A DNA stretch of 64,000 bases from Nitrospiria bacterium (lineage in GTDB: Bacteria > Nitrospirota > Nitrospiria > Nitrospirales > NS-4): positions 67,214 through 131,213 of the forward strand of contig JBGPTH010000002.1 in the NCBI GenBank assembly GCA_041490525.1. Reading direction: 5' to 3'. Shown here piece after piece: positions 3,616-35,584 of this stretch (its first letter is position 1; every line of letters starts with the position of its first letter). The notes under the pieces are model-generated. The model saw only the letters and a program-made list of their open reading frames with translations, did no database searches and had not been told where the DNA came from. The position numbers and the translations under genes were made by a program.

Positions 3616-3800
3616 GGCAAAGTGCCCCCGGGCCAGCCCTGGTTATCCATGGATGCCGTAGCGAGGCGGTCGAGACCGAAGCCTGCCATGGCTTCTCGCA
3701 AGTAAGGATGACGCAGGCGTACTCGCAGCAGTACGTCGAGGAAGCCGAACGAGAAAAGCCGTGCCGGGCGAGAGGATCGGACGACGCAGTAGGTATTCAT
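3612..3800 (-). CDS. hypothetical small basic protein (weak call)
   Basis: 62-aa ATG ORF packed tightly between neighbours. It starts 6 nt after the upstream stop and has an ATGA overlap with the queG start. GC3 is fairly high. There is no RBS and no recognisable domain. Confidence 0.3.
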   Translation of the reverse strand: MNTYCVVRSSRPARLFSFGFLDVLLRVRLRHPYLREAMAGFGLDRLATASMDNQGWPGGTLP

Positions 3801-3806
3801 GGGTAA

Positions 3807-4169
3807 TCAGGGCTGAGGACAATCAAAATACACGGTGAATTTGGCGCTGCACTGGCGGGCCTGGCACGTGCCGCACATGCCGGTGATCCGGGTCTTCCAG
3901 TCGGTCCGCTTGTCATCGAACCGGCAAGAGATGCCCGCGGACCTCTCGATGTCGGTCCAGCGAGTCTGGGTGGCCGTGTTAACGGCCACCTTGCAGGAGG
4001 GCGGGACCGGGACCTCGCACTGCCTGCCGCTCATGCCTTTTTTGATGCTTCCGATCTGGCACGAGCTTGATGTCTGCGTGTCGCGGCCGAGAGGCTGGGC
4101 ATCGGCCTGCATCGCGATGCCGACGACGCACAGGACAACTCCCGTCTTAAGGATGCGAGTCCATCGCAT
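3807..4169 (-). CDS. secreted cysteine-rich hypothetical protein
   Basis: Internal ATG at 4169 (MRWTRILKTGVVLCVVGIAMQADA) gives a signal peptide followed by about 95 aa with 9 Cys. The 108 codons upstream in the same ORF are Arg/Gly/Asp-rich, overlap the PolX start region, and were not accepted. Confidence 0.45.
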   Translation of the reverse strand: MRWTRILKTGVVLCVVGIAMQADAQPLGRDTQTSSSCQIGSIKKGMSGRQCEVPVPPSCKVAVNTATQTRWTDIERSAGISCRFDDKRTDWKTRITGMCGTCQARQCSAKFTVYFDCPQP

Positions 4170-5939: not shown

Positions 5940-6111
5940 TCGCCGAAGATCGCGGGTCCTGTCGCCGCATTACCCTGACGTGCTCGCGCTCCGCCAAGGG
6001 CAAGCAAGTCGCGCTGTGCTCCGCCAGGGTCCCATTCGGCGCCACCCGCTGCTTTATGCCGCTTGACAGGTCCTCAGCAGCAGCCTAGCCTAATCGTCAG
6101 CTATTAAGATG

Positions 6112-6133
6112 AGGTTCGAGTCCTGTCCGGGGA
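6112..6133 (+). repeat. orphan copy of the 3' end of tRNA-Asn (T-loop plus 3' acceptor strand)
   Basis: aggttcgagtcctgtccgggga matches tRNA-Asn 26519-26540 (aggttcgagtcctgcccgggga) at 21 of 22 positions. No matching 5' acceptor strand or D/anticodon arms lie upstream. Confidence 0.7.
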
Positions 6134-6171
6134 TAGATCAATTTTTGTCCTTAAGTTAGTGGGGACATCTG

Positions 6172-6672
6172 GTGTGGCTTCTTTATAAGTTACTTGCCGT
6201 TACCGCTTTGGTTTTGTTGGGCGCGCCATCCTTTGCGGCGGAATGCCTTCCTCTGCCTAATAAAGTGGAGAAACTGATTAAGGCCTACGCTGATGAGATT
6301 CGTGGGGCTGAATATTGTAAATTTCGGAAAGTGGCGCGTGGCGATATTGATGCGGACGGAGTTGAGGACCTGGCAGTAGTTTTTACTGTCGAAGGTGCTT
6401 GCAACGATGACAAAGAAACTACTCCGGGAGCCTGCGGGAATCATCACGAGTCATTTATGATGGTCTTTCTTGGCAAGTCTCTGAAAAAAGTGCCTAGGCT
6501 AGAGGTTGGCTCTAGGGGTGTAAGGGCAATAACTTCGATTGAGATCGTTAATGAGGCTGTTGCGGCTGAAACCTTAGCATACGGAAGCGATGATGCTCAG
6601 TGCTGTCCGTCGGTAAAAGGGAACGCAGCCTTCATCCTGAAAAAAGGTGTTCTGACCGAGAAGCGTCAATAA
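6172..6672 (+). CDS. secreted hypothetical protein (AT-rich islet)
   Basis: 166 aa with a GTG start and signal peptide LLAVTALVLLGAPSFAAE. It contains several Cys. The composition is visibly AT-richer than the flanking genes. No family was recognised. Confidence 0.5.
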   Translation: MWLLYKLLAVTALVLLGAPSFAAECLPLPNKVEKLIKAYADEIRGAEYCKFRKVARGDIDADGVEDLAVVFTVEGACNDDKETTPGACGNHHESFMMVFLGKSLKKVPRLEVGSRGVRAITSIEIVNEAVAAETLAYGSDDAQCCPSVKGNAAFILKKGVLTEKRQ

Positions 6673-6716
6673 CTATGCGAGATGAGGCGGGGGAGGTTAA
6701 TGGGCAGCCTACTTTG

Positions 6717-6764
6717 TTCTCGGGACCTCGAATCGCAAGGTTCGAAAAGCGTACAGGCCGGGGA
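6717..6764 (+). repeat. 48-nt tRNA-like repeat, copy A
   Basis: ttctcgggacctcgaatcgcaaggttcgaaaagcgtacaggccgggga. It is collinear with copies B-F and sits 44 nt after the stop of the preceding ORF. Confidence 0.75.
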
Positions 6765-26468: not shown

Positions 26469-26544
26469 TCCCCGGTAGCTCAGTTGGTAGAGCAGCCGGC
26501 TGTTAACCGGCTGGTCGCAGGTTCGAGTCCTGCCCGGGGAGCCA
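26469..26544 (+). tRNA. tRNA-Asn (anticodon GTT), CCA encoded
   Basis: The cloverleaf was checked by hand. Acceptor: tccccgg/ccgggga. D-arm: gctcagttggtagagc. Anticodon stem-loop: gccgg-ctGTTaa-ccggc. T-arm: gcagg-ttcgagt-cctgc. Discriminator g followed by cca. Confidence 0.95.
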
Positions 26545-26578
26545 ACTGCCTTCGTGGAGAGAGGATCAAGGATGTCAT

Positions 26579-27055
26579 ATGACTGACAAGAAAATTGTTA
26601 TGCACCATGACAAGAACATTGCGCTGGTCGCTCACGACAATAAGAAACGGGACCTGGTGGAATGGGCCACATACAACCGCGATCTCTTGGCACACCACAA
26701 AGTGTATGCGACCGGCACCACCGGCGAGATCCTGGAACGCGAACTGGGCTTCAAAATCACGAGATTCCAAAGCGGACCCTTGGGCGGGGACCAGCAAATC
26801 GGTGCCAAGATTGTCGCTGACGAGATCAATTTTCTCATCTTTTTCTGGGATCCGCTCGAACCCATGCCGCATGACCCCGATGTCAAGGCCCTCTTGCGCA
26901 TGGCAGTGGTGTGGAATATTCCCATTGCCTGTAATCGGGCCTCCGCGGATTTCATGATCTCCTCTCCCCTCATGGAGGGGAAATATGATCGACTGGTACC
27001 CGATTATGAGGGTTATCGCACTCGGAAAACAGACAGAGGCGAAGGAGCAGGCTGA
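26579..27055 (+). CDS. mgsA: methylglyoxal synthase
   Basis: 158 aa, collinear with enterobacterial MgsA. Shared motifs: IALVAHD, YATGTTG, GPLGGDQQIGA, FFWDPL, PHDPDVKALLR. Confidence 0.85.
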   Translation: MTDKKIVMHHDKNIALVAHDNKKRDLVEWATYNRDLLAHHKVYATGTTGEILERELGFKITRFQSGPLGGDQQIGAKIVADEINFLIFFWDPLEPMPHDPDVKALLRMAVVWNIPIACNRASADFMISSPLMEGKYDRLVPDYEGYRTRKTDRGEGAG

Positions 27056-27110
27056 GGCGTCAGTCACCATTTCCTAGAGGAAGATGGTCTTGGGGGCTAG
27101 GCTGTCTTTG

Positions 27111-27158
27111 TTCTGGAGAACTCGAATCTCAGGGTTCGCAAAGGGCACAGATCGGGGA
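27111..27158 (+). repeat. 48-nt tRNA-like repeat, copy B
   Basis: ttctggagaactcgaatctcagggttcgcaaagggcacagatcgggga, followed by gcc as in tRNA-Asn. It sits 55 nt after the mgsA stop. Confidence 0.75.
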
Positions 27159-28171
27159 GCCGATTGTGCTCATTTTGTGCTCAACTCCACCTCACTCCAA
27201 CTCCTTCCAGCCTACTCCAGCCAAGTTGCCGTCCTGGCTGAACTCGTTGTTGGAATGAGGTGGAATGAGCCAGAGTTGGCTGGAGTTGGCCCGGTGAAAT
27301 GGTTTGCCAAGGCGAGCGTCGGGGATTCCTAAACCGTGTTTCCTTTCTCTGTTCGCATGGGCTTGCGTGACGTTTTGGACTCGCTGATTTCGTATCAGCG
27401 TCGCAGACAAAAAGGATAAGAAATCAAACAGTTGCGGAGCTCTACTACCACCCTGCTACCACTCTCGCCAAGGCTGCATTTTGGAGTACAGCGAGATCTT
27501 CCTCAATGGTCTCCATCCACTCTATTTCCTGACATAGCGCCTGGATCAGTTTAAGGGAGCAGGGCAGAAAGGCTAGTCCAACCATCGGGACCTTTCAAGC
27601 GTGGTCTTCAGAAGCCTTTGAGAGATGGATGAGGAAAGCGGGAAAACCCATCTGTTGCGAGAGGAAAACGGCTAGAGAAGCCGCACGTCGCTGGACCGCT
27701 TCAGGAGTAGAAAACCTGCCTTCTCGGTGGTTTAGCTTGCTGGCTTGCTGTTGTGGTCTGCCGTCGTTCCGGTTTCTGTCACGGTTGGAACAGAAGCCCA
27801 CTTTGCATCGTCACAAACCACTTCGTGTTGGCTGACAGCTTCACTTTTTAGAAGAGACCCGCTGTTAAGAGTTCGCAGTTGTCACTACGCAGCGCGTCTA
27901 GTTCTCAGCTATCTGAGAGAAGAAGGTCCCAACCGGACCCACCCGGATCACACCGCCGCCACGGGTTGGCTTTAGTCTGAGGCGAGTTTGATAGGGTGAC
28001 CTCGGGTGACTTCTTACGTGCATCAACTGCTGCGGACGCCGGTGGGAGGGCATCCGATTTGAGGGGATTGCCGACTTACCCGATATCCTGTATGGTGTTG
28101 TCAAGTGTGCCGTGGCGTCGAGCCCGGACAAGGGATGACCTTATTGCAAGGGCGACCGATCGAGCTGGGAT

Positions 28172-29296
28172 ATGAACTCGCCGGACCTTTCGTTCTCGAA
28201 ACTGGATTTTTCCTCCACCCCGTTTTTGGTGATCTGGGAACTGACCCAGGCATGCGACCTCGTGTGTCGGCACTGCCGGGCCTCTGCCATGCCCGAGCGG
28301 TGTCCGGAGGAGCTTACGACCGCCGAAGGACGTTGCCTGTTGGAAGAGGTTCAGGCGATGGGGACGCCCGTCGTGGTCTTGAGCGGAGGGGATCCCCTCA
28401 AGCGTCCGGATCTCCCCGAACTTATCCGGCACGGAGTCGATATCGGGCTCCGTATGGCCACCATCCCGGCGGCCACTGCCCGGATTACCCCGGAGCTGCT
28501 TGCCACGCTGAAAGCCGCCGGGCTGGCTCAGATCGCCTTCAGTTTGGACGCTTCCACTGAGGCCCTCCACGATGGTTTTCGGCAGGTTCCCGGTACCTAC
28601 CGGACCACCTTGCAAGCGATCGAGTGGGCCAAGCAGACCGGCCTGCCGGTGCAGATCAACACGACCTATTCAAGGTACAACCTTGCCGATGCCGAGCCGA
28701 TGATGGAGCTGGTGAGCCGCCTGGGTATCGTGTTCTGGGAAGTGTTCGTTCTCGTTCCGATCGGCCGCGGAAAGGAATTAGATGGGTTGACGGCAGGGGA
28801 ATGCGAAGACTTGCTCTTGAAGCTCTATAACTGTTCCACTCGGTCGCGCTTCCTCATTAAAGTCACTGAGGCGCCGCATTATCGCAGAATCATCCTCCAG
28901 CGTCGGGAGGCCTCATCCCAGGCTATGAACTTTCCCGCTGGTTCGATGATTCCTGCCCAGCTTGCCGGGGGCATGGCTGCCTCAAAGGCCTTCGGCCGGA
29001 AGGCGAAGGGCATTAATGCGGCCAAGGGTTTCTGCTTCGTTTCGCACACCGGCGAGGTCTATCCGAGCGGCTTCCTCCCGATCTCCGTCGGGAACGTCCG
29101 ATCTTCCTCTTTGGCCTCTCTCTACAGGAATAGCCCGTTGTTTCGGGTTCTTCGCGATCCCGACCAGTTACGGGGACGATGCGGGCGCTGTGAGTTTCGG
29201 GAGGTTTGCGGAGGGTCGCGGTCGCGGTCGTATGCGCTCACGGGCGATGTGCTGGCGGAGGACCCTGCCTGCATTTACAATCCTAAAGCCCCTTAG
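28172..29296 (+). CDS. radical SAM/SPASM-domain protein (AhbD/NirJ/peptide-maturase-like)
   Basis: 374 aa with the radical SAM motif CDLVCRHC. The C-terminus is Cys-rich (CGRCEFREVCGGSRSRSY...DPAC), consistent with auxiliary clusters. Confidence 0.8.
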   Translation: MNSPDLSFSKLDFSSTPFLVIWELTQACDLVCRHCRASAMPERCPEELTTAEGRCLLEEVQAMGTPVVVLSGGDPLKRPDLPELIRHGVDIGLRMATIPAATARITPELLATLKAAGLAQIAFSLDASTEALHDGFRQVPGTYRTTLQAIEWAKQTGLPVQINTTYSRYNLADAEPMMELVSRLGIVFWEVFVLVPIGRGKELDGLTAGECEDLLLKLYNCSTRSRFLIKVTEAPHYRRIILQRREASSQAMNFPAGSMIPAQLAGGMAASKAFGRKAKGINAAKGFCFVSHTGEVYPSGFLPISVGNVRSSSLASLYRNSPLFRVLRDPDQLRGRCGRCEFREVCGGSRSRSYALTGDVLAEDPACIYNPKAP

Positions 29297-29350
29297 CCTT
29301 CAGGCCGTGCTTTTTGAGCAGACGGTCAACGGTTTTTCGGTTCACACCGG

Positions 29351-29587
29351 TGTTGTGCCCCAATTAGAATTTGGACAGGGAAAGTGAGTCGGAGGGTTGA
29401 TGAAAACGGGCGTGAAACCTCCCCAGAACGATCATAATGGGAAACGGCAGTGGACTTCCGAACAGAAGATCGGCGGTGGTGTCCACATGCACCTTTGGAA
29501 GCGGAGCCTCGAACACCGCGAATTCTTTTCAGAATGGATGGTCAAAAACGAGAAACGACCTGTCCAAATATTAAGTGGGGCAGTACA
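29351..29587 (+). mobile_element. 237-bp internally deleted IS3-family (IS150-like ends) relic
   Basis: The terminal inverted repeats TGTTGTGCCCCAATTAGAATTTGGACAGG (left) and the rc of the right end TGTACTGCCCCACTTAATATTTGGACAGG match at 24 of 29 positions, with TG...CA termini. The left repeat is followed by an RBS and ATG, then a short orfA-like N-terminus (..GKRQWTSEQKI..) that runs into the right repeat. Confidence 0.55.
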
Positions 29588-29594
29588 GTTTTGG

Positions 29595-29642
29595 TTCTCG
29601 GGACCTCGAATCACAAGGTTCGCAAATTGTACGGTTTGGGGA
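29595..29642 (+). repeat. 48-nt tRNA-like repeat, copy C
   Basis: ttctcgggacctcgaatcacaaggttcgcaaattgtacggtttgggga, followed by gccacca. Confidence 0.75.
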
Positions 29643-30002
29643 GCCACCACAATTGCGTAAAGGAATTGGCAGCTTAGTCCATTACCCGGTTCGACAATTT
29701 CGAACCCTCTTCCCTTGCCCCAATTTAGGTGGGTCAGTACAACATCCTTTACTTGTGGCATTGTGCACCATTGCAGCATTGGATTACTGTGGACCATCGC
29801 AACTCACCCGGCAACAACTTGCAACGTAATTCTTCTTTAATCGCCCCCTTGCCGCCCAGCATACAAATTGCTTAATAACTAAAGAGAGTCCTTGTAACCG
29901 TCTTCTACCCCACAGCATGGATGTGGGGTAATCTAAGGTACAGGGAGTCGGCCGAAGAGGCCTTGGAGATGAGGTGGTGAGGCGGGCAAGGAAGGTCTTT
30001 CC

Positions 30003-30431
30003 ATGAGCGCACGCAAGCATTTTGACACAATGACGGTAGCGACATTCATGGAAAAGGATGTTCAATGTGGCTTCCGGAGCACTAAGGCTGACGTGCTGGC
30101 CTCGCAAATGATTGAAGGTTTCGGCGGTGTGCCGATTGTGGATGATGATAGGCGACTGGTCGGAATCGTCACGGAGTTTGATCTCTTGGATGCGCTGGGC
30201 TGCGGCTTATTGTTAAGTGAGTTGACGGCCCAACAAATTATGACCGGCTTTCCAATCAGTGCCAGGAAAGACATGGATGCTCAGAGGTTGATTCATCTCT
30301 TAAAGACGAACCATTTGATTCGGGTGCCTGTGGTTGATCAGGAAGACAGGCTTATCGGCGTCGTAGCACGTCGGGACATTCTCCGGAGTTACCTTGCCAC
30401 GCCTGAGAGAACGGGGAAGGAGGATTGGTAG
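30003..30431 (+). CDS. CBS domain pair protein
   Basis: 142 aa with two CBS-like repeats (...VPIVDDDRRLVGIVTEFDLL... and ...IRVPVVDQEDRLIGVVARRDIL...). Confidence 0.75.
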   Translation: MSARKHFDTMTVATFMEKDVQCGFRSTKADVLASQMIEGFGGVPIVDDDRRLVGIVTEFDLLDALGCGLLLSELTAQQIMTGFPISARKDMDAQRLIHLLKTNHLIRVPVVDQEDRLIGVVARRDILRSYLATPERTGKEDW

Positions 30432-30460
30432 TATGGCTCGTATCCGAAAAGGAGGACACC

Positions 30461-30664
30461 ATGTCTGTTGCCAGAGTGACCGAGATAATCGCTGCATCCC
30501 CGAAGGGTTTTGAGGATGCCCTACAAGTTGGTGTCGCACGCGCCAACAAGACCTTGCAAAACGTGAAGAGCGCCTGGGTTGAGGATCAAAAGGTTATCAT
30601 CGAGAATGGAAAAATCACGGAATACCGAGTTGCGCTGAAAGTCACTTTTGTTCTCAAGGAGTAG
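30461..30664 (+). CDS. dodecin family (flavin-binding) protein
   Basis: 67 aa with the RBS aaaggagg 5 nt upstream. The sequence MSVARVTEIIAASPKGFEDA...EYRVALKVTF matches the dodecin pattern. Confidence 0.7.
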   Translation: MSVARVTEIIAASPKGFEDALQVGVARANKTLQNVKSAWVEDQKVIIENGKITEYRVALKVTFVLKE

Positions 30665-30806
30665 TGCAGGCCGCCTACGACAGTCGCTGCCACTTATCAG
30701 GCGTGCTGCACAGGACCAGCAGGGATATTCTTGGCAAACGGTGGGACTTCTTGTAAGGTGTAACATCGGCTGATAGCTGTCTTCAACCGAGAACGCGAGG
30801 TGCGGA

Positions 30807-31046
30807 ATGACGAGGAAACCGACTAAGTTGAAGCAGGCAAGCGCTCCTTCAACAGTTAGTCGCGAGAAAGTGGCGAAACTTGCTTACGAAATGTGGTTGA
30901 CCAGGAAAGCCGAACATGGCCACGAGGTGGAGGATTGGCTGGCAGCGGAACGACTCCTGATAGAAGAATTGCAACGTCGAGGAAGCCAGGGGCGGTCAGA
31001 CGACAAGACAATGGAGGGGAAACGGCGCATTACAAAGAGGAGATAG
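30807..31046 (+). CDS. DUF2934-like small protein
   Basis: 79 aa. The segment AYEMWLTRKAEHGHEVEDWLAAE matches the DUF2934 signature as I recall it. Confidence 0.55.
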   Translation: MTRKPTKLKQASAPSTVSREKVAKLAYEMWLTRKAEHGHEVEDWLAAERLLIEELQRRGSQGRSDDKTMEGKRRITKRR

Positions 31047-31108
31047 CCGCAGGAGGATGACCGGCATAGGACCATTCCCCGTTAACCGGGGCAGGTCCCA
31101 AATTGCGC

Positions 31109-31156
31109 TCCTTGGTAGCTCAAACCGGATGGTTCGCAAATCGTACGGTTCGGGGA
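31109..31156 (+). repeat. 48-nt tRNA-like repeat, copy D
   Basis: tccttggtagctcaaaccggatggttcgcaaatcgtacggttcgggga. Its 5' part, ggtagctca, equals the D-arm start of tRNA-Asn. The ends form 7 bp when G-U pairs are counted. Confidence 0.75.
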
Positions 31157-31214
31157 TGCGGTCGCCGTTGCCGCGTTTCATAGCATTCAGCTAGAAGCAG
31201 TTTCATCTCATTCA

Positions 31215-31280
31215 GTGTTGTGCCCCAGTTAAGATTTGGACAGGCCGTTTCTCATATTTTGACCATCCATTCTTCTTTCC
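31215..31280 (-). mobile_element. truncated end of a second copy of the same IS3-family element (inverted orientation)
   Basis: gtgttgtgccccagttaagatttggacagg plus the next roughly 35 nt (ccgtttctcatattttgaccatccattct) are the reverse complement of the interior and right end of the 29351-29587 relic. Confidence 0.5.
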
Positions 31281-31299
31281 GGCAGCTGAGGACTGCAAG

Positions 31300-31367
31300 T
31301 GACCTGCCCCCTTCCAACTGGTCCAGATCGTATGTTAGATCTGGGCCGGCTGGAAGGGGGCAGGTCA
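31300..31367. repeat. 68-bp near-perfect palindrome made of two abutted IS3-type terminal repeats
   Basis: The left arm is tgacctgcccccttccaactggtccagatc, followed by an 8-nt loop (gtatgtta). The right arm is gatctgggccggctggaagggggcaggtca. The arms match at 26 of 30 positions. The outer ends TGACCTGCCCCC resemble IS3/IS407-group termini. Confidence 0.7.
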
Positions 31368-31403
31368 GGATGATGATGGATCTGACCGTGCAATGACAAC
31401 GTT

Positions 31404-33098
31404 ATGGCACTAAGTCCTTTAGCAGGAAAGCCGGCCGACCTCTCGATGCTGGTGAACGTGCCCAGACTCGTCACGGCCTATTATACCGAGACGCCTGACC
31501 CTTCAGTGCCGGCCCAGCGGGTGGCGTTCGGCACCTCGGGACATCGTGGTTCCGCATTCGACAAGGCGTTCAATGAACGGCATATTCTGGCCATCAGTCA
31601 AGCCATCTGCCAGTACCGCGAGCAGCAGGGTATCGATGGCCCACTGTTTCTGGGTATCGACACGCATGCGCTTTCCGTGCCGGCCTGCGCGAGTGCGCTG
31701 GAGGTGCTGGCGGCCAATGAGGTGGACGTCATGATCGCGGAGGGGGATGAATATACGCCAACCCCTGCCGTGTCCCACGCGATTCTCACATACAACCGCG
31801 GACGCACGACTGGACTTGCTGATGGCATCGTCATTACGCCCTCGCATAATCCGCCCCATGATGGCGGCTTCAAATACAATCCCCCACACGGCGGGCCCGC
31901 TGAGAGCAGCGTGACAGGCTGGATCGAGGCGAGAGCGAACGAGTTCCTCGATGCTGGGCTGCGGAATGTGAAACGGATTTCTTTCGAGAAAGCTCTTCGC
32001 GCCTCCACGACCCACCGGCACAATTATCTCACCGCTTACGTGAGCGATCTTGCCGGCGTCATCGATATGGATGCGATTCGCGGCGCGAACATCAGTATGG
32101 GCGTGGATCCGCTTGGTGGCGCCGGAGTTCACTATTGGGGCCCGATCGCCGAGCGTTATGGGTTGAAGCTCACGGTCGTCAACGAGGTCGTCGATCCGAC
32201 CTTCCGGTTCATGACGGTGGATTGGGACGGCCAGATCCGCATGGATCCGTCCTCGCCCTATGCGATGCAGAGGCTGATCGGGCTTAAAGACAGCTTCGAG
32301 ATCGCCTTCGCCTGCGACACCGACCATGACCGTCACGGGATTGTCACTAGGAGCGCGGGGTTGCTTCCGCCCAATCACTACCTTTCGGTGGCCATCTTCT
32401 ATCTCTTCCAACACCGGCCGAAGTGGCGCAGGGAAGCGGCGGTGGGTAAAACGTTGGTGAGCAGCCAGATGATTGATCGCGTCACCGCGAAGCTTGGACG
32501 GAAGCTCTACGAGGTGCCGGTCGGCTTCAAGTGGTTCGTTGATGGCCTGCTCGACGGCTCGTTGGGCTTCGGCGGCGAAGAGAGCGCGGGCGCGTCCTTC
32601 CTCCGTCAGGATGGCAGCGTCTGGACGACGGACAAAGATGGAATCATCCCGGCTCTGCTTGCGGCGGAGATCACGGCGCGGATGGGCCGCGATCCTGGGG
32701 AGATCTACCTCGAACTCACGCGGGAGGCCGGTGAGCCTGTGTACGAACGGGTTGATGCGCCTGCCACCCCGGAGCAAAAAGAGATGCTGGCAAGGCTCTC
32801 GCCACAGCAGGTCCGGCTCACAGACCTGGCCGGCGAAAAAATCCAGACCATCCTCACCCACGCGCCGGGCAACGGCGCTCCCATCGGCGGGATCAAGGTG
32901 ATCACGAAAAGTGGATGGTTCGCGGCGCGTCCGTCCGGGACCGAGAATATCTACAAGATTTATGCGGAGAGCTTCCGGGGAGCGGATCATCTGCGCCGCA
33001 TCCTGGAGGAAGCCCAGACGATCGTCGGCGATGCTTTGGCGGCGTCCCCGCAGCAGCCAGGGATTCCGGCCGAGCCAAAACTGAAGGAAAATCTATGA
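31404..33098 (+). CDS. pgm: phosphoglucomutase, alpha-D-glucose phosphate-specific
   Basis: 564 aa with the phosphoserine loop GTSGHRGS. It is collinear with E. coli-type Pgm from the N-terminus (LAGKPA...[10 protein letters not shown]). Confidence 0.9.
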
Positions 33099-33130
33099 GC
33101 AAACTAACACGTGTCAGCCACCCGATATAC

Positions 33131-34088
33131 TGGGCTGCTGCCGGTTTCAAAGACACCGAGTTAGGTGTATTGATGGAACCGGAGGTGGCTTATGGAGCGA
33201 CGACAGTTTACGCGGGAGTTCAAGCTTGAGGCGGTGAAGCTAATCACGGAACGCGGGGTGACGGTGGTGCAAGCCTCGCGCGATTTGGGCGTACATGGGA
33301 CGGTGCTGCGCAAATGGGTGAAGGAGTGTACGGCCGATCCGCAGCAGGCCTTTCCGGGCCAGGGGCAGATGAAGCCCGAACAGTTGGAGCTCGCGCGGCT
33401 ACGCCGTGAAGTCCTCAAGCTGAAGGCGGAGCGCGACATCTTAAAAAAAGCCGCGGCGCACGCAGGGGCTCGAAGCCACGCGGCGGCGGCGCTTCCGGGT
33501 CATGACGGAACACCATCAGCTGCCCCCGCCCGCGCCGAATCTGCTGCACCAGCACTTTGCCGTGCCCGCGCCGCATTACGTGTGGGTGGGCGATATCACG
33601 GGGATTCCCTCCCGCGCCGGGTGGCTGTATCTGGCCGTGCTCCTGGATCTCTATTCGCGACGCGTCATTGGGTGGGCCATGCAGGCCCGCCCGGATCAGA
33701 CGCTCACGCAGACCGCCTTGACGATGGCGCTCACCCGAGTGGCGCGCACCCGGGCCTGATCCATCACACGGACCAAGGGGCCCCGTATGCGGCGACGGCC
33801 TATCGCCACGTGCTGGCGCAGCATGGGCTGGTGCCCAGCATGAGTCGCCGCGGCAATTGCTACGACAATGCCGTGGCGGAGAGCTTCTTTAGTACGTTGA
33901 AAAACGAGCTGGTCCATGATCGCGACTTCCGCACTCGGGAAGAGGTGCAGAGCGCGATCTTTGAGTTTATTGAGGTCTTTTATAACCGCCAGCGGATTCA
34001 CCAAGCCCTCGGCTATGTGAGTCCCGTGCAATTTGAGACCGGTCAGCATGTGCCTTAACTACGTGTCCGTGAAATCCGGGATAGCTCA
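33131..34088 (+). mobile_element. degenerate IS3-family insertion sequence (internal deletion plus frameshift)
   Basis: Imperfect ~40-bp terminal inverted repeats start with TG (tgggctgctgccggtttcaaagacaccgagttagg versus the rc of the right end tgagctatcccggatttcacggacacgtagttaag). The orfA is intact through the A7G slippery site (33443-50). The DDE region is present but broken. At 958 bp the element is shorter than typical IS3 members. Confidence 0.8.
33192..34058 (+). pseudogene. IS3-family transposase OrfAB remnant
   Basis: OrfA is MERRQFTREFKLEAVKL...ILKKAAA. The -1 frame continues ...GLEATRRRRFRVMTEHH..APNLL..WVGDITGI..GWLYLAVLLDLYSRRVIGW. The usual 80-100 aa (HTH_21 region) between these parts is missing. 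A further frame change near 33745-33760 precedes IHHTDQGAPY...GNCYDNAVAESFF. Confidence 0.8.
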
Positions 34089-34123
34089 GGCACTGTTTTC
34101 CCAATATGACTAGGCTGTTTTTG

Positions 34124-34171
34124 TTCTCGGGAACTTGAATCGCAGGGTTCGCAAAGGGTCCAGATCGGGGA
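34124..34171 (+). repeat. 48-nt tRNA-like repeat, copy E
   Basis: ttctcgggaacttgaatcgcagggttcgcaaagggtccagatcgggga. Confidence 0.75.
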
Positions 34172-34227
34172 ATTCTTAAACTGGTGTTTCATAAACATTG
34201 TAAGATTGTCTTCCTGGGGCGGGTAAA

Positions 34228-34578
34228 ATGTTAGCGGACAAAATCTACCCCTTCTTTATTGGGACTTGGCTGGTTCTCGCGGTTGCCTCGTGGTTGTTCT
34301 ATCGCTATGCCAGTTTTGCTTTCCGCCGAAGGTGGCATGGCTATTGGGTTGGAGGGTCGGTGGGGATCGTTGGTATCTTCTTTTTGGCCATGACTGCTGA
34401 CTGGCCGACCTTTCCTTTTGTGCTTTTCTTTATACTCCCTTTGATGGCCTGGATGGTATGGCTAAGCTATCGAAAGACTCGATTTTGCCTAAGCTGTGAA
34501 GCAATGTTATCGTATCAACCTTTCCGGGTACCCCCAGATTATTGTCCGAAGTGTGGGGCACCAACCGCCAGGGTGTAA
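34228..34578 (+). CDS. small membrane protein with C-terminal zinc-ribbon, hypothetical
   Basis: 116 aa and AT-rich. It has three hydrophobic helices, then CLSC...CPKC. Confidence 0.45.
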   Translation: MLADKIYPFFIGTWLVLAVASWLFYRYASFAFRRRWHGYWVGGSVGIVGIFFLAMTADWPTFPFVLFFILPLMAWMVWLSYRKTRFCLSCEAMLSYQPFRVPPDYCPKCGAPTARV

Positions 34579-34587
34579 ACTTCCCTT

Positions 34588-34635
34588 GTCCGGGGAACTG
34601 GAAGCGTAGAGTTCGCAAAGGGTCCAGATCGGGGA
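34588..34635 (+). repeat. 48-nt tRNA-like repeat, copy F
   Basis: gtccggggaactggaagcgtagagttcgcaaagggtccagatcgggga. It sits 9 nt after the preceding stop and 25 nt before the next ATG. Confidence 0.7.
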
Positions 34636-34660
34636 GTGAGCCTAGTCTGAGGGAGTCCAT

Positions 34661-35584
34661 ATGAATGTACAACCAGGCGTCCTCGAGTCGCCGCAAGAGC
34701 ATCTGGACATCATCTTCCTCAACGCCACCACCAGCAACCGCGCCACACTCAAAGGCACGCTCCAACGCCTCTCCGAGGATGCGGCACGCCTCATGGAGCA
34801 ACACGTGGCATCCGAACTGACTGTGACCATCGGCTTCGGCAGTGGGTTCGTGGACAAGGTTTCGCCCAAGCGGCGGCCCAAAGGGCTACGCTCCATGCCA
34901 CGCTTTGAGGGCGACGAGTACAATCCTACTGAGACACAGGCGGACCTGGTCGTGCAAATTTGCAGCAACGTGAAGTTTGCTAACTACACCGCAGGCAAGA
35001 CACTCCTCGGCCTCTTGGGTGGGGCGTTCACAACCAAGGCGTACCATCAGGGATTCACCTTCCCGGGCAGTCGCGGCTTACTGGGCTTTATCGATGGCAC
35101 GGCCAACCCTGGCACTGAGGACCGGCCCAGCGTGGTGCTCGTCGGCGGCGACGATCCCGCCTTCAGAGACGGCTCGTACATGGCCTTCCGCAAGATCCGC
35201 GAGGACGTGGCCGCCTGGAACAAGCTCTCTCCCAAGGCGCAGGAAGACGCCGTAGGTCGTGGCAAGGTCGACAGCGCGGAGCATCCCGACGCGCCGACGA
35301 CAAGCCACAAGAAGAAAAGCGACGTAAAGCTGGGCCGACGCGATATCAAAATCTACCGTCGCTCGTATCCCTTCTGGTCGCCCTTCGAGTCCGGGCTGCT
35401 GTTCATCTGCTACCAGGCGGACCTGGGCCAGTACGAGGCCATTAAGAAGAGCATGGTCAGTGAGGCCAAGGGTGGCCACGACCGCCTGGAGGACTTCTAT
35501 CATGCCGTGGAGGGCGGGTATTACTTCATGTCGCCTCGGCCCACGAGCAGGGGTGGGTTTATCGGTGATTTTCTGTTCCGGTAA
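34661..35584 (+). CDS. Dyp-type peroxidase
   Basis: 307 aa with the GFIDGTANP motif and distal-Arg-region context. No signal or TAT peptide was seen. Confidence 0.85.
   Translation: MNVQPGVLESPQEHLDIIFLNATTSNRATLKGTLQRLSEDAARLMEQHVASELTVTIGFGSGFVDKVSPKRRPKGLRSMPRFEGDEYNPTETQADLVVQICSNVKFANYTAGKTLLGLLGGAFTTKAYHQGFTFPGSRGLLGFIDGTANPGTEDRPSVVLVGGDDPAFRDGSYMAFRKIREDVAAWNKLSPKAQEDAVGRGKVDSAEHPDAPTTSHKKKSDVKLGRRDIKIYRRSYPFWSPFESGLLFICYQADLGQYEAIKKSMVSEAKGGHDRLEDFYHAVEGGYYFMSPRPTSRGGFIGDFLFR

Follow-up and report, generated by a model that had tools for sequence, protein, structure and literature searches.

The stretch analysed here, referred to as the window, comprises 64,000 nucleotides (64 kb) of a Nitrospiria bacterium contig (JBGPTH010000002.1, assembly GCA_041490525.1), and our subject is a 48-nt repeat that occurs six times in it (copies A to F). 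The first-pass annotation, made from the letters alone, had placed all six copies on one strand, in the orientation of a tRNA-Asn gene. Both statements hold: a degenerate pattern returned five matches against 0.01 expected from shuffles (copy F is too diverged to match), a profile search of the whole window agreed and returned exactly six copies, all on the + strand, and ARAGORN and Rfam concur on the tRNA gene (26469-26544, +). Five of the six copies are found downstream of tRNA-Asn, and copy A lies about 20 kb upstream of it. The expected gene content (MGS, radical SAM/SPASM, CBS, dodecin, DUF2934, PGM, IS3-like transposase and DyP) was recovered by Pfam. The locus is laid out as follows, with 'T' denoting a half-site that consists of the tRNA-Asn T-arm and 3' acceptor strand:

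6113-6133, +: orphan tRNA-Asn T-arm/acceptor fragment GGTTCGAGTCCTGTCCGGGGA (attB-type half-site, T), left junction of a separate insertion
6134-6716, +: low-GC (0.49) segment with a 166-amino-acid open reading frame (ORF; 6172-6672) without assigned function, ending in copy A
6717-6764, +: copy A, right junction of the separate one-gene insertion
26469-26544, +: tRNA-Asn(GUU) gene, anchor of the array
26545-27110, +: segment 1, mgsA (26579-27055; Pfam MGS), GC 0.53
27111-27158, +: copy B, attP-type half-site GGTTCGCAAAGGGCACAGATC plus core GGGGA; antisense reads LPDLCPLRTLRFEFSRTKTA and then a stop
27159-29594, +: segment 2, non-coding decayed DNA, radical SAM/SPASM gene (28172-29296), miniature inverted-repeat transposable element (MITE; 29351-29587)
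29595-29642, +: copy C, followed by GCCACCA; a stop falls within the antisense frame (RTL, stop, FE)
29643-31108, +: segment 3, CBS (30003-30431), dodecin (30425-30664) and DUF2934 (30807-31046) genes, GC 0.52
31109-31156, +: copy D, matched by pattern and profile
31157-34123, +: segment 4, solo MITE end (31215-31259), pgm (31404-33098), IS3-like transposase ORF (33192-34058)
34124-34171, +: copy E, matched by pattern and profile
34172-34587, +: segment 5, 116-amino-acid ORF (34228-34578) without a Pfam match, GC 0.49
34588-34635, +: copy F, the most decayed copy (AGTTCG, left part altered), last scar of the array
34661-35584, +: DyP peroxidase gene (Pfam), after copy F

The five array segments behind tRNA-Asn span 0.4-3 kb, each closed by one repeat. 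That the blocks are partly richer in AT than their surroundings is borne out by their GC content of 0.49-0.57 (0.60 in the pgm block) as compared to 0.62 in the flanks. Judged by the ORF and repeat tables, copies A to F follow the preceding unit at 44, 55, 7, 62, 65 and 9 nt, respectively; the range of 7-62 nt given in the first-pass annotation is therefore right at its lower end and too short at its upper end (65 nt at copy E). The separate single-gene insertion, which runs from the orphan T to copy A, sits after the PolX gene, and the presence of T at 6113-6133 beside the ORF of copy A means that the distant sixth copy shows the same arrangement of T and repeat. The DyP gene, previously counted as a cassette, is probably chromosomal flank beyond the array: at another of the loci collected for comparison (denoted by L-numbers), L122, an 88%-identical DyP gene directly follows another gene with no repeat before it, and homology to the window begins at the DyP start codon.

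When read in antisense, the repeat is the end of a protein-coding gene. The antisense of all copies reads WLPxLYxLRTxRFExPR, and the variation within the repeat has a period of three. At L068 (7130-8815) we found a 561-amino-acid large serine recombinase (LSR) ending in ...FDPNWLPGLYPLRTIRFDLAR.. before its stop, the last ~100 nt of which correspond to a repeat copy in reverse complement; read on its opposite strand, the repeat thus encodes the LSR tail WLPxLYxLRTxRFxxPR. Homologues of the L068 LSR carry the domains Resolvase (PF00239), Recombinase (PF07508) and Zn_ribbon_recom (PF13408). In the window, the six repeats account for the six best C-terminal tblastn matches of the L068 LSR, each of them on the - strand. 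Three of the repeats are the only LSR-like matches with E below 0.3, the other three being among the chance-level matches, and the same search found no LSR gene or LSR pseudogene body in the 64 kb. Clustering of the ORFs near repeats yielded an LSR cluster with members at six loci, the fifth largest; the clusters were mostly housekeeping or generic families.

That the repeat is an LSR 3' coding end explains both the period-three variation and the antisense peptide present in all copies, and it follows that the repeat sequence is inherited from full elements. It also accounts for several features which had been taken as marks of a tRNA or of a palindrome. The half-palindrome described beside several copies, CTAGGCTG, is indeed present at copies B and E, where it constitutes the stop-codon region of the antisense frame (...PRTKTA, then stop). 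The stretch at the start of copy D that was likened to the tRNA D-arm has no structural support and corresponds to the antisense codons ELPR instead; the 'acceptor-like' ends likewise fall in antisense codons (PRT, ELPR). An independent small antisense gene was considered and rejected: the frame has no start codon, only short ORFs lie upstream, and it is coding only as a detached LSR C-terminus.

The LSR homologues differ in their tails. Of 120, 35 end in WLPGQDSNLRP.. and further ones in WLPGQESNLRPAG; the tails of others are of the repeat type, for instance WLPELYALRTLRFEVPR. The WLPGQESNLRPAG-type tail is the exact antisense translation of the 3' half of tRNA-Asn, with its stop at the TAA of the anticodon loop. 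As tails of both the tRNA type and the repeat type occur, attP lies within the LSR gene; the W-L-P codons (on the tRNA strand, GGGGAGCCA) are the predicted place of the crossover, and the LSR would exchange its tail on integration. The LSR gene is also physically tied to the site, overlapping the repeat in L068 and tRNA-Asn in L182 and L184; there is no such gene in the window. Still other LSR homologues end in WLPSADSNHGHGD or WLPIADSNHGQGG, and in L048 the 3' end of a distant LSR (~28% identity; 297-1988) overlaps a tRNA-Met gene (1945-2020, -) in antisense, which suggests that related LSRs may target other tRNA genes in the same way.

On the tRNA side, the T-arm and 3' acceptor strand of tRNA-Asn (26520-26540, GGTTCGAGTCCTGCCCGGGGA) form the attB-type half-site (B) plus core. 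The repeat has only ~10 nt in common with the tRNA, CGGGGAG(CCA). From the start of GGTTCG to GGGGA there are 21 nt in the repeat as compared to 16 nt in tRNA-Asn and the T fragments; counted to a centre between G and A, the half-sites measure 25 bp (repeat) and 20 bp (tRNA). In serine integrases the attP half-site is 25 bp long, and the zinc-ribbon domain (ZD) motif is 'shifted by 5 bp toward the center' in attB (PMC3783163), so that the 5-nt difference in spacing matches the attP/attB half-site offset of these enzymes. The first-pass annotation had entered this difference as a caveat; it is real, the repeats are indeed not diverged duplicates of the tRNA, and, read as the attP/attB offset, the caveat becomes the key clue.

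A clear inverted right arm, as in GTTCGCAAAGCGTACAGATC GGGGAGC GATCTGTACGCTGTTGCGAAC, was recognised in 19 of 246 repeats and in 7 of 61 T sites; most copies have none. The sites that have one around GGGGAGC (~8-11%) form quasi-palindromes of ~48 bp, and the arms are of two kinds, repeat-type or T-arm. The figure of 19/246 stems from a looser search than a test with the motif TTTGCGAAC (one mismatch allowed), which occurs after the repeat in 2 of 74 copies, no more than chance. Several tRNA or T sites are followed by an arm (...CTTGACGCTGTTGCGAAC) that agrees with the tRNA-proximal coding end of the LSR in L184 and is therefore taken as what remained of P' once the LSR was lost. The symmetry centre lies between G and A or between A and G, and break-points fall at GGGGA/N (the slash marks the break), with the next base equal at both junctions of a segment; the central dinucleotide would thus be GA or AG.

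The T motif, GGTTCGAGTCCnnnnCGGGGA, is the T-arm and 3' acceptor strand of tRNA-Asn, found within a full tRNA gene or, more often, as an orphan. Among 66 such T-arm/acceptor matches across all loci fetched, the nearest same-strand repeat is downstream of T in 46 cases and upstream in seven; T sites also occur inside arrays (L129).

To follow the repeat beyond the window, a pattern scan was run over one genome per species, as the first-pass annotation had proposed. It returned 52 stretches with the repeat, from Acidobacteriota, Nitrospirota, Binatia, Zixibacteria, Omnitrophota and Verrucomicrobia, and a pattern scan of metagenomes added at least 120 further stretches; with duplicates removed, there are at least 244 copies in at least 169 loci. 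The arrays are same-strand and mostly anchored by T. Among the matches listed, 52 of 169 loci are multi-copy and only two have mixed strands, the median segment is 856 nt long, 98 of the 134 ORFs in segments (73%) are co-oriented, and the repeat begins a median of 44 nt after a stop codon. Viral contigs of IMG/VR gave no repeat match, and a phage origin was set aside on this ground.

Comparison of loci places the segment boundaries at the core. In L065 the order is T, isochorismatase gene, repeat, and in L116 repeat, same gene, repeat; the two are 99.5% identical over 869 nt in unrelated contexts, with homology spanning from the GGGGA of the left site to the GGGGA of the right repeat. The base following GGGGA is the same at both junctions within a genome: T in L065, G in L116. 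A boundary of the same kind is seen around a DUF6843 gene in L035 and L042. At an asparaginase-linked locus that is orthologous between L035 and L112, divergence sets in right after T and the segment content differs. The 166-amino-acid ORF of the window recurs with its repeat in L126 (87% nucleotide identity), again with a T fragment in front: T and repeat are kept, and the sequence outside them, as well as the spacer between T and the ORF, is unrelated. A CBS-domain ORF in L123, a distant one (no match at E<=1e-5), is bordered directly by repeats. L092 and L154 break inside T, after GGTTCGAGTCCTG, not at GGGGA. The junction that distinguishes L134 from L168 was examined as a further candidate and discarded, being unrelated to repeats.

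Full elements occupy the orthologous site in relatives. In three loci from Nitrospira metagenome-assembled genomes (MAGs) and metagenomes (L181, L182 and L183) the POR operon and an 89-amino-acid ORF are followed by an LSR gene, and the window has the same arrangement of POR and tRNA-Asn. In L182 and L183 tRNA-Asn is located between the 89-amino-acid ORF and the LSR gene, and in L182, where the overlap was checked, the last 42 nt of the LSR gene overlap the tRNA in antisense. The LSR running antisense into tRNA-Asn in Nitrospira relatives has the tail WLPGQDSNLRPAG. The L182 element measures ~6.7 kb; beyond its far junction come GCCA and a hairpin resembling a terminator, which plausibly represent the original trailer of the tRNA. 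In L184 this tRNA is occupied by two tandem LSR elements; where they meet, a repeat-like P half-site adjoins the inner LSR, and the tail of that inner LSR is of the repeat type. Insertion beside an already occupied tRNA thus happens, with older elements pushed outward. In the comparison of orthologous tRNA-Asn loci suggested in the first-pass annotation, relatives hold other content at the position of segment 1 (L008, L072 and L182, all related Nitrospiraceae), in L182 and L184 in the form of LSR elements. In L181 the order is as in L182; ARAGORN detected no tRNA-Asn there, probably since the gene is split by an intron. We note that the tRNA-Asn(GUU) gene of a Nitrospiraceae MAG (L008, 2890-3150, -) carries a group I intron in its anticodon loop (RF00028, 65.6 bits, above the gathering score); in L181 the LSR frame runs past its usual stop, which, together with the missing ARAGORN call, is consistent with the same intron.

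The observed site anatomy, overlap of LSR genes with the site, exchange of tails, exact break-points and tandem element lead us to a reading that we consider quite likely: the repeats mark attR-type junctions, scars left by integrative elements which an LSR inserts with the 3' end of tRNA-Asn as attB. The repeat itself would be the P-type half-site plus core (GGGGA/G) of an LSR-family attP. In the free element, attP would lie within the 3' end of the LSR gene; on the + strand of the window it would consist of the antisense of the final ~16-30 LSR codons, followed by the P half-site GGTTCGCAAAnCGTACrGnnC, the core GGGGA/G, and P' in LSR coding sequence, with GGTTCG as the outer motif that the zinc-ribbon domain presumably recognises. 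Strand exchange at the core, which we infer to be catalysed by the LSR, would join the tRNA T-arm half-site to the body of the LSR gene; after integration the C-terminus of the enzyme would be encoded by the tRNA in antisense, and the repeat, as the 48-nt P half-site with its core, would stay behind at the far end of the insertion. New insertions would enter beside the tRNA half-site and push older ones outward, producing a same-strand chain with one repeat per segment end. In the window the LSR genes would have been lost, leaving five low-GC segments invaded by an insertion sequence (IS) and a MITE plus one separate insertion at an orphan tRNA-Asn fragment.

Of the explanations offered in the first-pass annotation, successive integrations at tRNA-Asn is thus essentially upheld, except that the relics would not be diverged tRNA duplicates: they would represent an element-side attP half-site plus core, and the enzyme would be an LSR, not a tyrosine integrase. 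The near-identical LSR-less segments in different arrays argue for movement in trans, and such segments may be mobilised by an LSR encoded elsewhere. A wider claim we put forward tentatively, as somewhat short of probable: a cross-phylum LSR family may use the near-universal tRNA-Asn 3' end and orphan copies of it as attB, have attP in its own gene and so swap its tail, and mobilise in trans LSR-less single-gene segments with only the 48-nt P half-site, giving rise to integron-like cassette arrays that would be the work of a serine and not a tyrosine recombinase.

Several points weigh against the LSR-scar interpretation. The window contains no LSR gene or pseudogene body, and its copies may be dead relics. 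Those LSR elements that come closest at the orthologous locus (L182) leave behind another kind of scar, not of the repeat type, and the subfamily behind the scars of the window is represented only by L068-like genes and by homologues with repeat-type tails. According to the description in PMC3783163, attP and attB are the only pair that serine integrases recombine, while repeated insertion at one tRNA requires attL (B-core-P') as target; the outcome is seen in L184, but the interpretation gives no mechanism for it. In around 90% of repeats and T sites a right half-site cannot be recognised. As the patterns used to gather the repeat copies prescribe GGTTCG...GGGGA, the conservation figures of the GGTTCG and GGGGA columns are inflated. 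Finally, the interpretation does not explain how orphan T fragments came to lie behind unrelated chromosomal genes.

A different reading, also raised in the first-pass annotation, takes the repeats as attC analogues of an integron-like cassette system, with the T-arm as the attI analogue and a recombinase encoded elsewhere, and not as debris of LSR elements. The behaviour of the arrays speaks for it: segments are short (median 856 nt), mostly single-gene and same-strand, 73% of their ORFs are co-oriented, the repeat follows the stop codon at a median of 44 nt, near-identical LSR-less segments with exact core boundaries recur in different arrays, T sites lie inside arrays too (L129), and no recombinase is enriched among the ~300 ORFs neighbouring repeats. 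The identity of the sites is another matter, and we regard this reading as unlikely, since the repeat can be shown to constitute the 3' coding end of an LSR gene, since relatives carry full LSR elements at this very tRNA site, and since neither IntI, nor an attC-type hairpin, nor GTTRRRY boxes were found. The search for recombinases that had been advised came out accordingly: nothing IntI-like turned up, with no Phage_integrase in the window or among the best 25 Pfam families in 300 neighbouring ORFs, while a serine recombinase, the LSR, was found at six loci. RYYYAAC/GTTRRRY boxes and consensus pairing are absent from the repeat alignment. Integron attC and XerCD/dif-like sites were rejected as templates for the repeat, as boxes and palindromy do not fit and the resemblance to dif is confined to one arm. 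What separates the integron-like reading from that of LSR scars is solely the question of whether the main mobile unit is the LSR-less segment.

We think it highly improbable that the repeats are att relics of islands or integrative and conjugative elements (ICEs) that target tRNA-Asn by means of a tyrosine integrase. Such ICEs do exist in Acidobacteriota, with a 406-amino-acid tyrosine integrase 25 nt from tRNA-Asn (L052, L056, L058, L060), and they can be found near the repeat, which lies 3 kb beyond the integrase in L052 and abuts an integrase fragment in L037. However, the direct repeat that these ICEs use (L055) copies 45 nt of the 3' half of the tRNA and is not the 48-nt repeat, which makes them a separate system; the repeat has but ~10 nt in common with the tRNA, and a profile of the L052 integrase found no other member in ~1 Mb of repeat-flanking DNA. 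The two systems co-occur because both use the same tRNA. The Islander signature (tRNA, direct-repeat tRNA fragment, tyrosine integrase) is accordingly seen in the Acidobacteriota ICE and not in the repeats. These ICEs encode TrbI, TrbL, VirB8, TraG, VirB11 and a RepB primase (L052 3195-4667; L056, L058 and L060, with ~10001-11330 in L056 and L058). The remaining explanation, which we find barely credible, is that the repeat is a structured RNA: a tRNA-Asn mimic, a 3' untranslated region or repetitive extragenic palindromic (REP)-like element, or an RNase P/Z processing signal. The repeat usually lies downstream of co-oriented genes and often ends in GGGGAGCCA, as tRNA-Asn does, and in Nitrospirota copies a GAAYC/GGTTC hairpin and a terminal pairing can be drawn. 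Yet RNAalifold on 64 distinct copies from many genomes gave -1.0 kcal/mol; of its five pairs four are essentially invariant and one is weakly compensated, so that this test of covariation lends no support to the acceptor-like terminal helix of the first-pass annotation. Moreover, A/G variation opposite an invariant C is left uncompensated, the 5' 'acceptor' strand is not conserved in Binatia and Acidobacteriota copies, and single-sequence folds are no better than those of shuffles in five of the six window copies. Rfam gives no match to the repeat, whether at the gathering score or at E<=10, and the genuine tRNA is all that ARAGORN and Rfam detect; these results do not support the tRNA-mimic hypothesis.

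Compared with described LSRs (Listeria A118/LI integrase, phiC31, Bxb1), the elements inferred here likewise have Resolvase, Recombinase and zinc-ribbon domains in the LSR homologues and, in the minority of sites that keep an inverted right arm, ~48-50-bp quasi-palindromes around a short core, with the outer motif 5 bp nearer the centre in attB and half-sites of ~25 and ~20 bp (PMC3783163); the resulting arrays are strictly oriented as well. Unlike in those systems, the target is a tRNA gene, attP resides inside the recombinase's own 3' coding end, one B half-site is used repeatedly, yielding tandem arrays, and many segments are LSR-less with only a P half-site. An attP within the integrase gene is also a feature of Sulfolobus SSV1-type integrases, which are tyrosine recombinases. 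A further tyrosine recombinase of this kind, the IntP of Myxococcus phage Mx8, is cited in a 2014 survey (PMC4383910, its reference 24). In both, integration at a tRNA gene likewise alters or splits the C-terminal coding region of the integrase, here from xLYxLRTxRF.. to GQDSNLRPAG; the chemistry is of the tyrosine type there and of the serine type here, and, unlike in Mx8 IntP and SSV1, only the last ~16-30 codons are exchanged and the body of the enzyme stays intact.

Tandem accretion at tRNA sites is known from Prochlorococcus tycheposons and Islander arrays, in which remnants and att copies pile up (bioRxiv 10.1101/2020.12.28.424599; PMC4383910). There, too, integrations succeed one another at one tRNA and push older elements outward, with tyrosine recombinases and with repeats that are partial tRNA copies; by contrast, the present repeat is element-derived, has a ~10-nt core in common with the tRNA and in antisense encodes a recombinase tail. 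With integrons and clusters of attC sites lacking integron integrases (CALINs) the arrays have in common the short, same-strand, mostly single-gene and co-oriented segments each ending in a conserved site, the frequent lack of a linked recombinase and the shuffling of segments between arrays. They differ from these in having no IntI, attC hairpin or RYYYAAC/GTTRRRY boxes; their site, a linear half-site, stems from the end of a gene, and the anchor is tRNA T-arm sequence. A literature search with the repeat sequence as string returned only irrelevant papers. The parts (serine integrases, tandem accretion at tRNAs, attP in the integrase gene) are known; the combination we did not find described in the literature.

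The LSR-scar interpretation accounts for a chain of unrelated low-GC genes split by a repeat of invariant length. According to the 2014 survey, serine-family integrases were at that time not known to target tRNA genes (PMC4383910). If the interpretation is correct, tRNA-gene targeting, long held to be a speciality of tyrosine integrases (PMC4383910), extends to serine integrases, and the sites are a natural illustration of the attP/attB half-site rule, with the same outer motif offset by 5 bp. The change of tail on integration could affect the activity or directionality of the LSR. The arrays appear to be a widespread route for the gain of small-cargo genes in Nitrospirota, Acidobacteriota, Binatia and other soil and sediment phyla, and the genome engineering of bacteria that are hard to culture or transform could profit from a serine integrase whose natural attB, in tRNA-Asn, is conserved.

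A number of further features were noted in the window and around repeats. The MITE-like element just before copy C (29351-29587) is ~237 bp long and has terminal inverted repeats of 29 nt (TGTTGTGCCCCAATTAGAATTTGGACAGG); one end of this MITE recurs on its own just after copy D (31215-31259), and related pieces are found in L045. The 288-amino-acid ORF at 33192-34058 contains HTH_Tnp_1 and a truncated rve domain and is probably a relic of the IS3 family with orfAB fused or shortened; a related transposase adjoins a repeat in L043. Two non-coding stretches of the window are conserved: 106 nt after the PolX gene (5948-6053), 86% identical to L034 3755-3857, and ~165 nt between queG and the next ORF (3637-3812), with 81-85% identity to L036 and L041; Rfam matches neither stretch at E<=0.1. 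Group II introns lie 40-200 nt from a repeat copy in L003 (4727-5505, -) and L050 (7373-7449, -), and two neighbour ORFs (loci L061-L133) match PF23343 (REP_ORF2-G2P, a rolling-circle replication initiator). Lastly, L168 joins position 7749 of L134 to position 379 at 99.6-99.8% identity, implying a circular or tandemly duplicated 7.4-kb segment (L134 379-7749) that carries a two-segment array.

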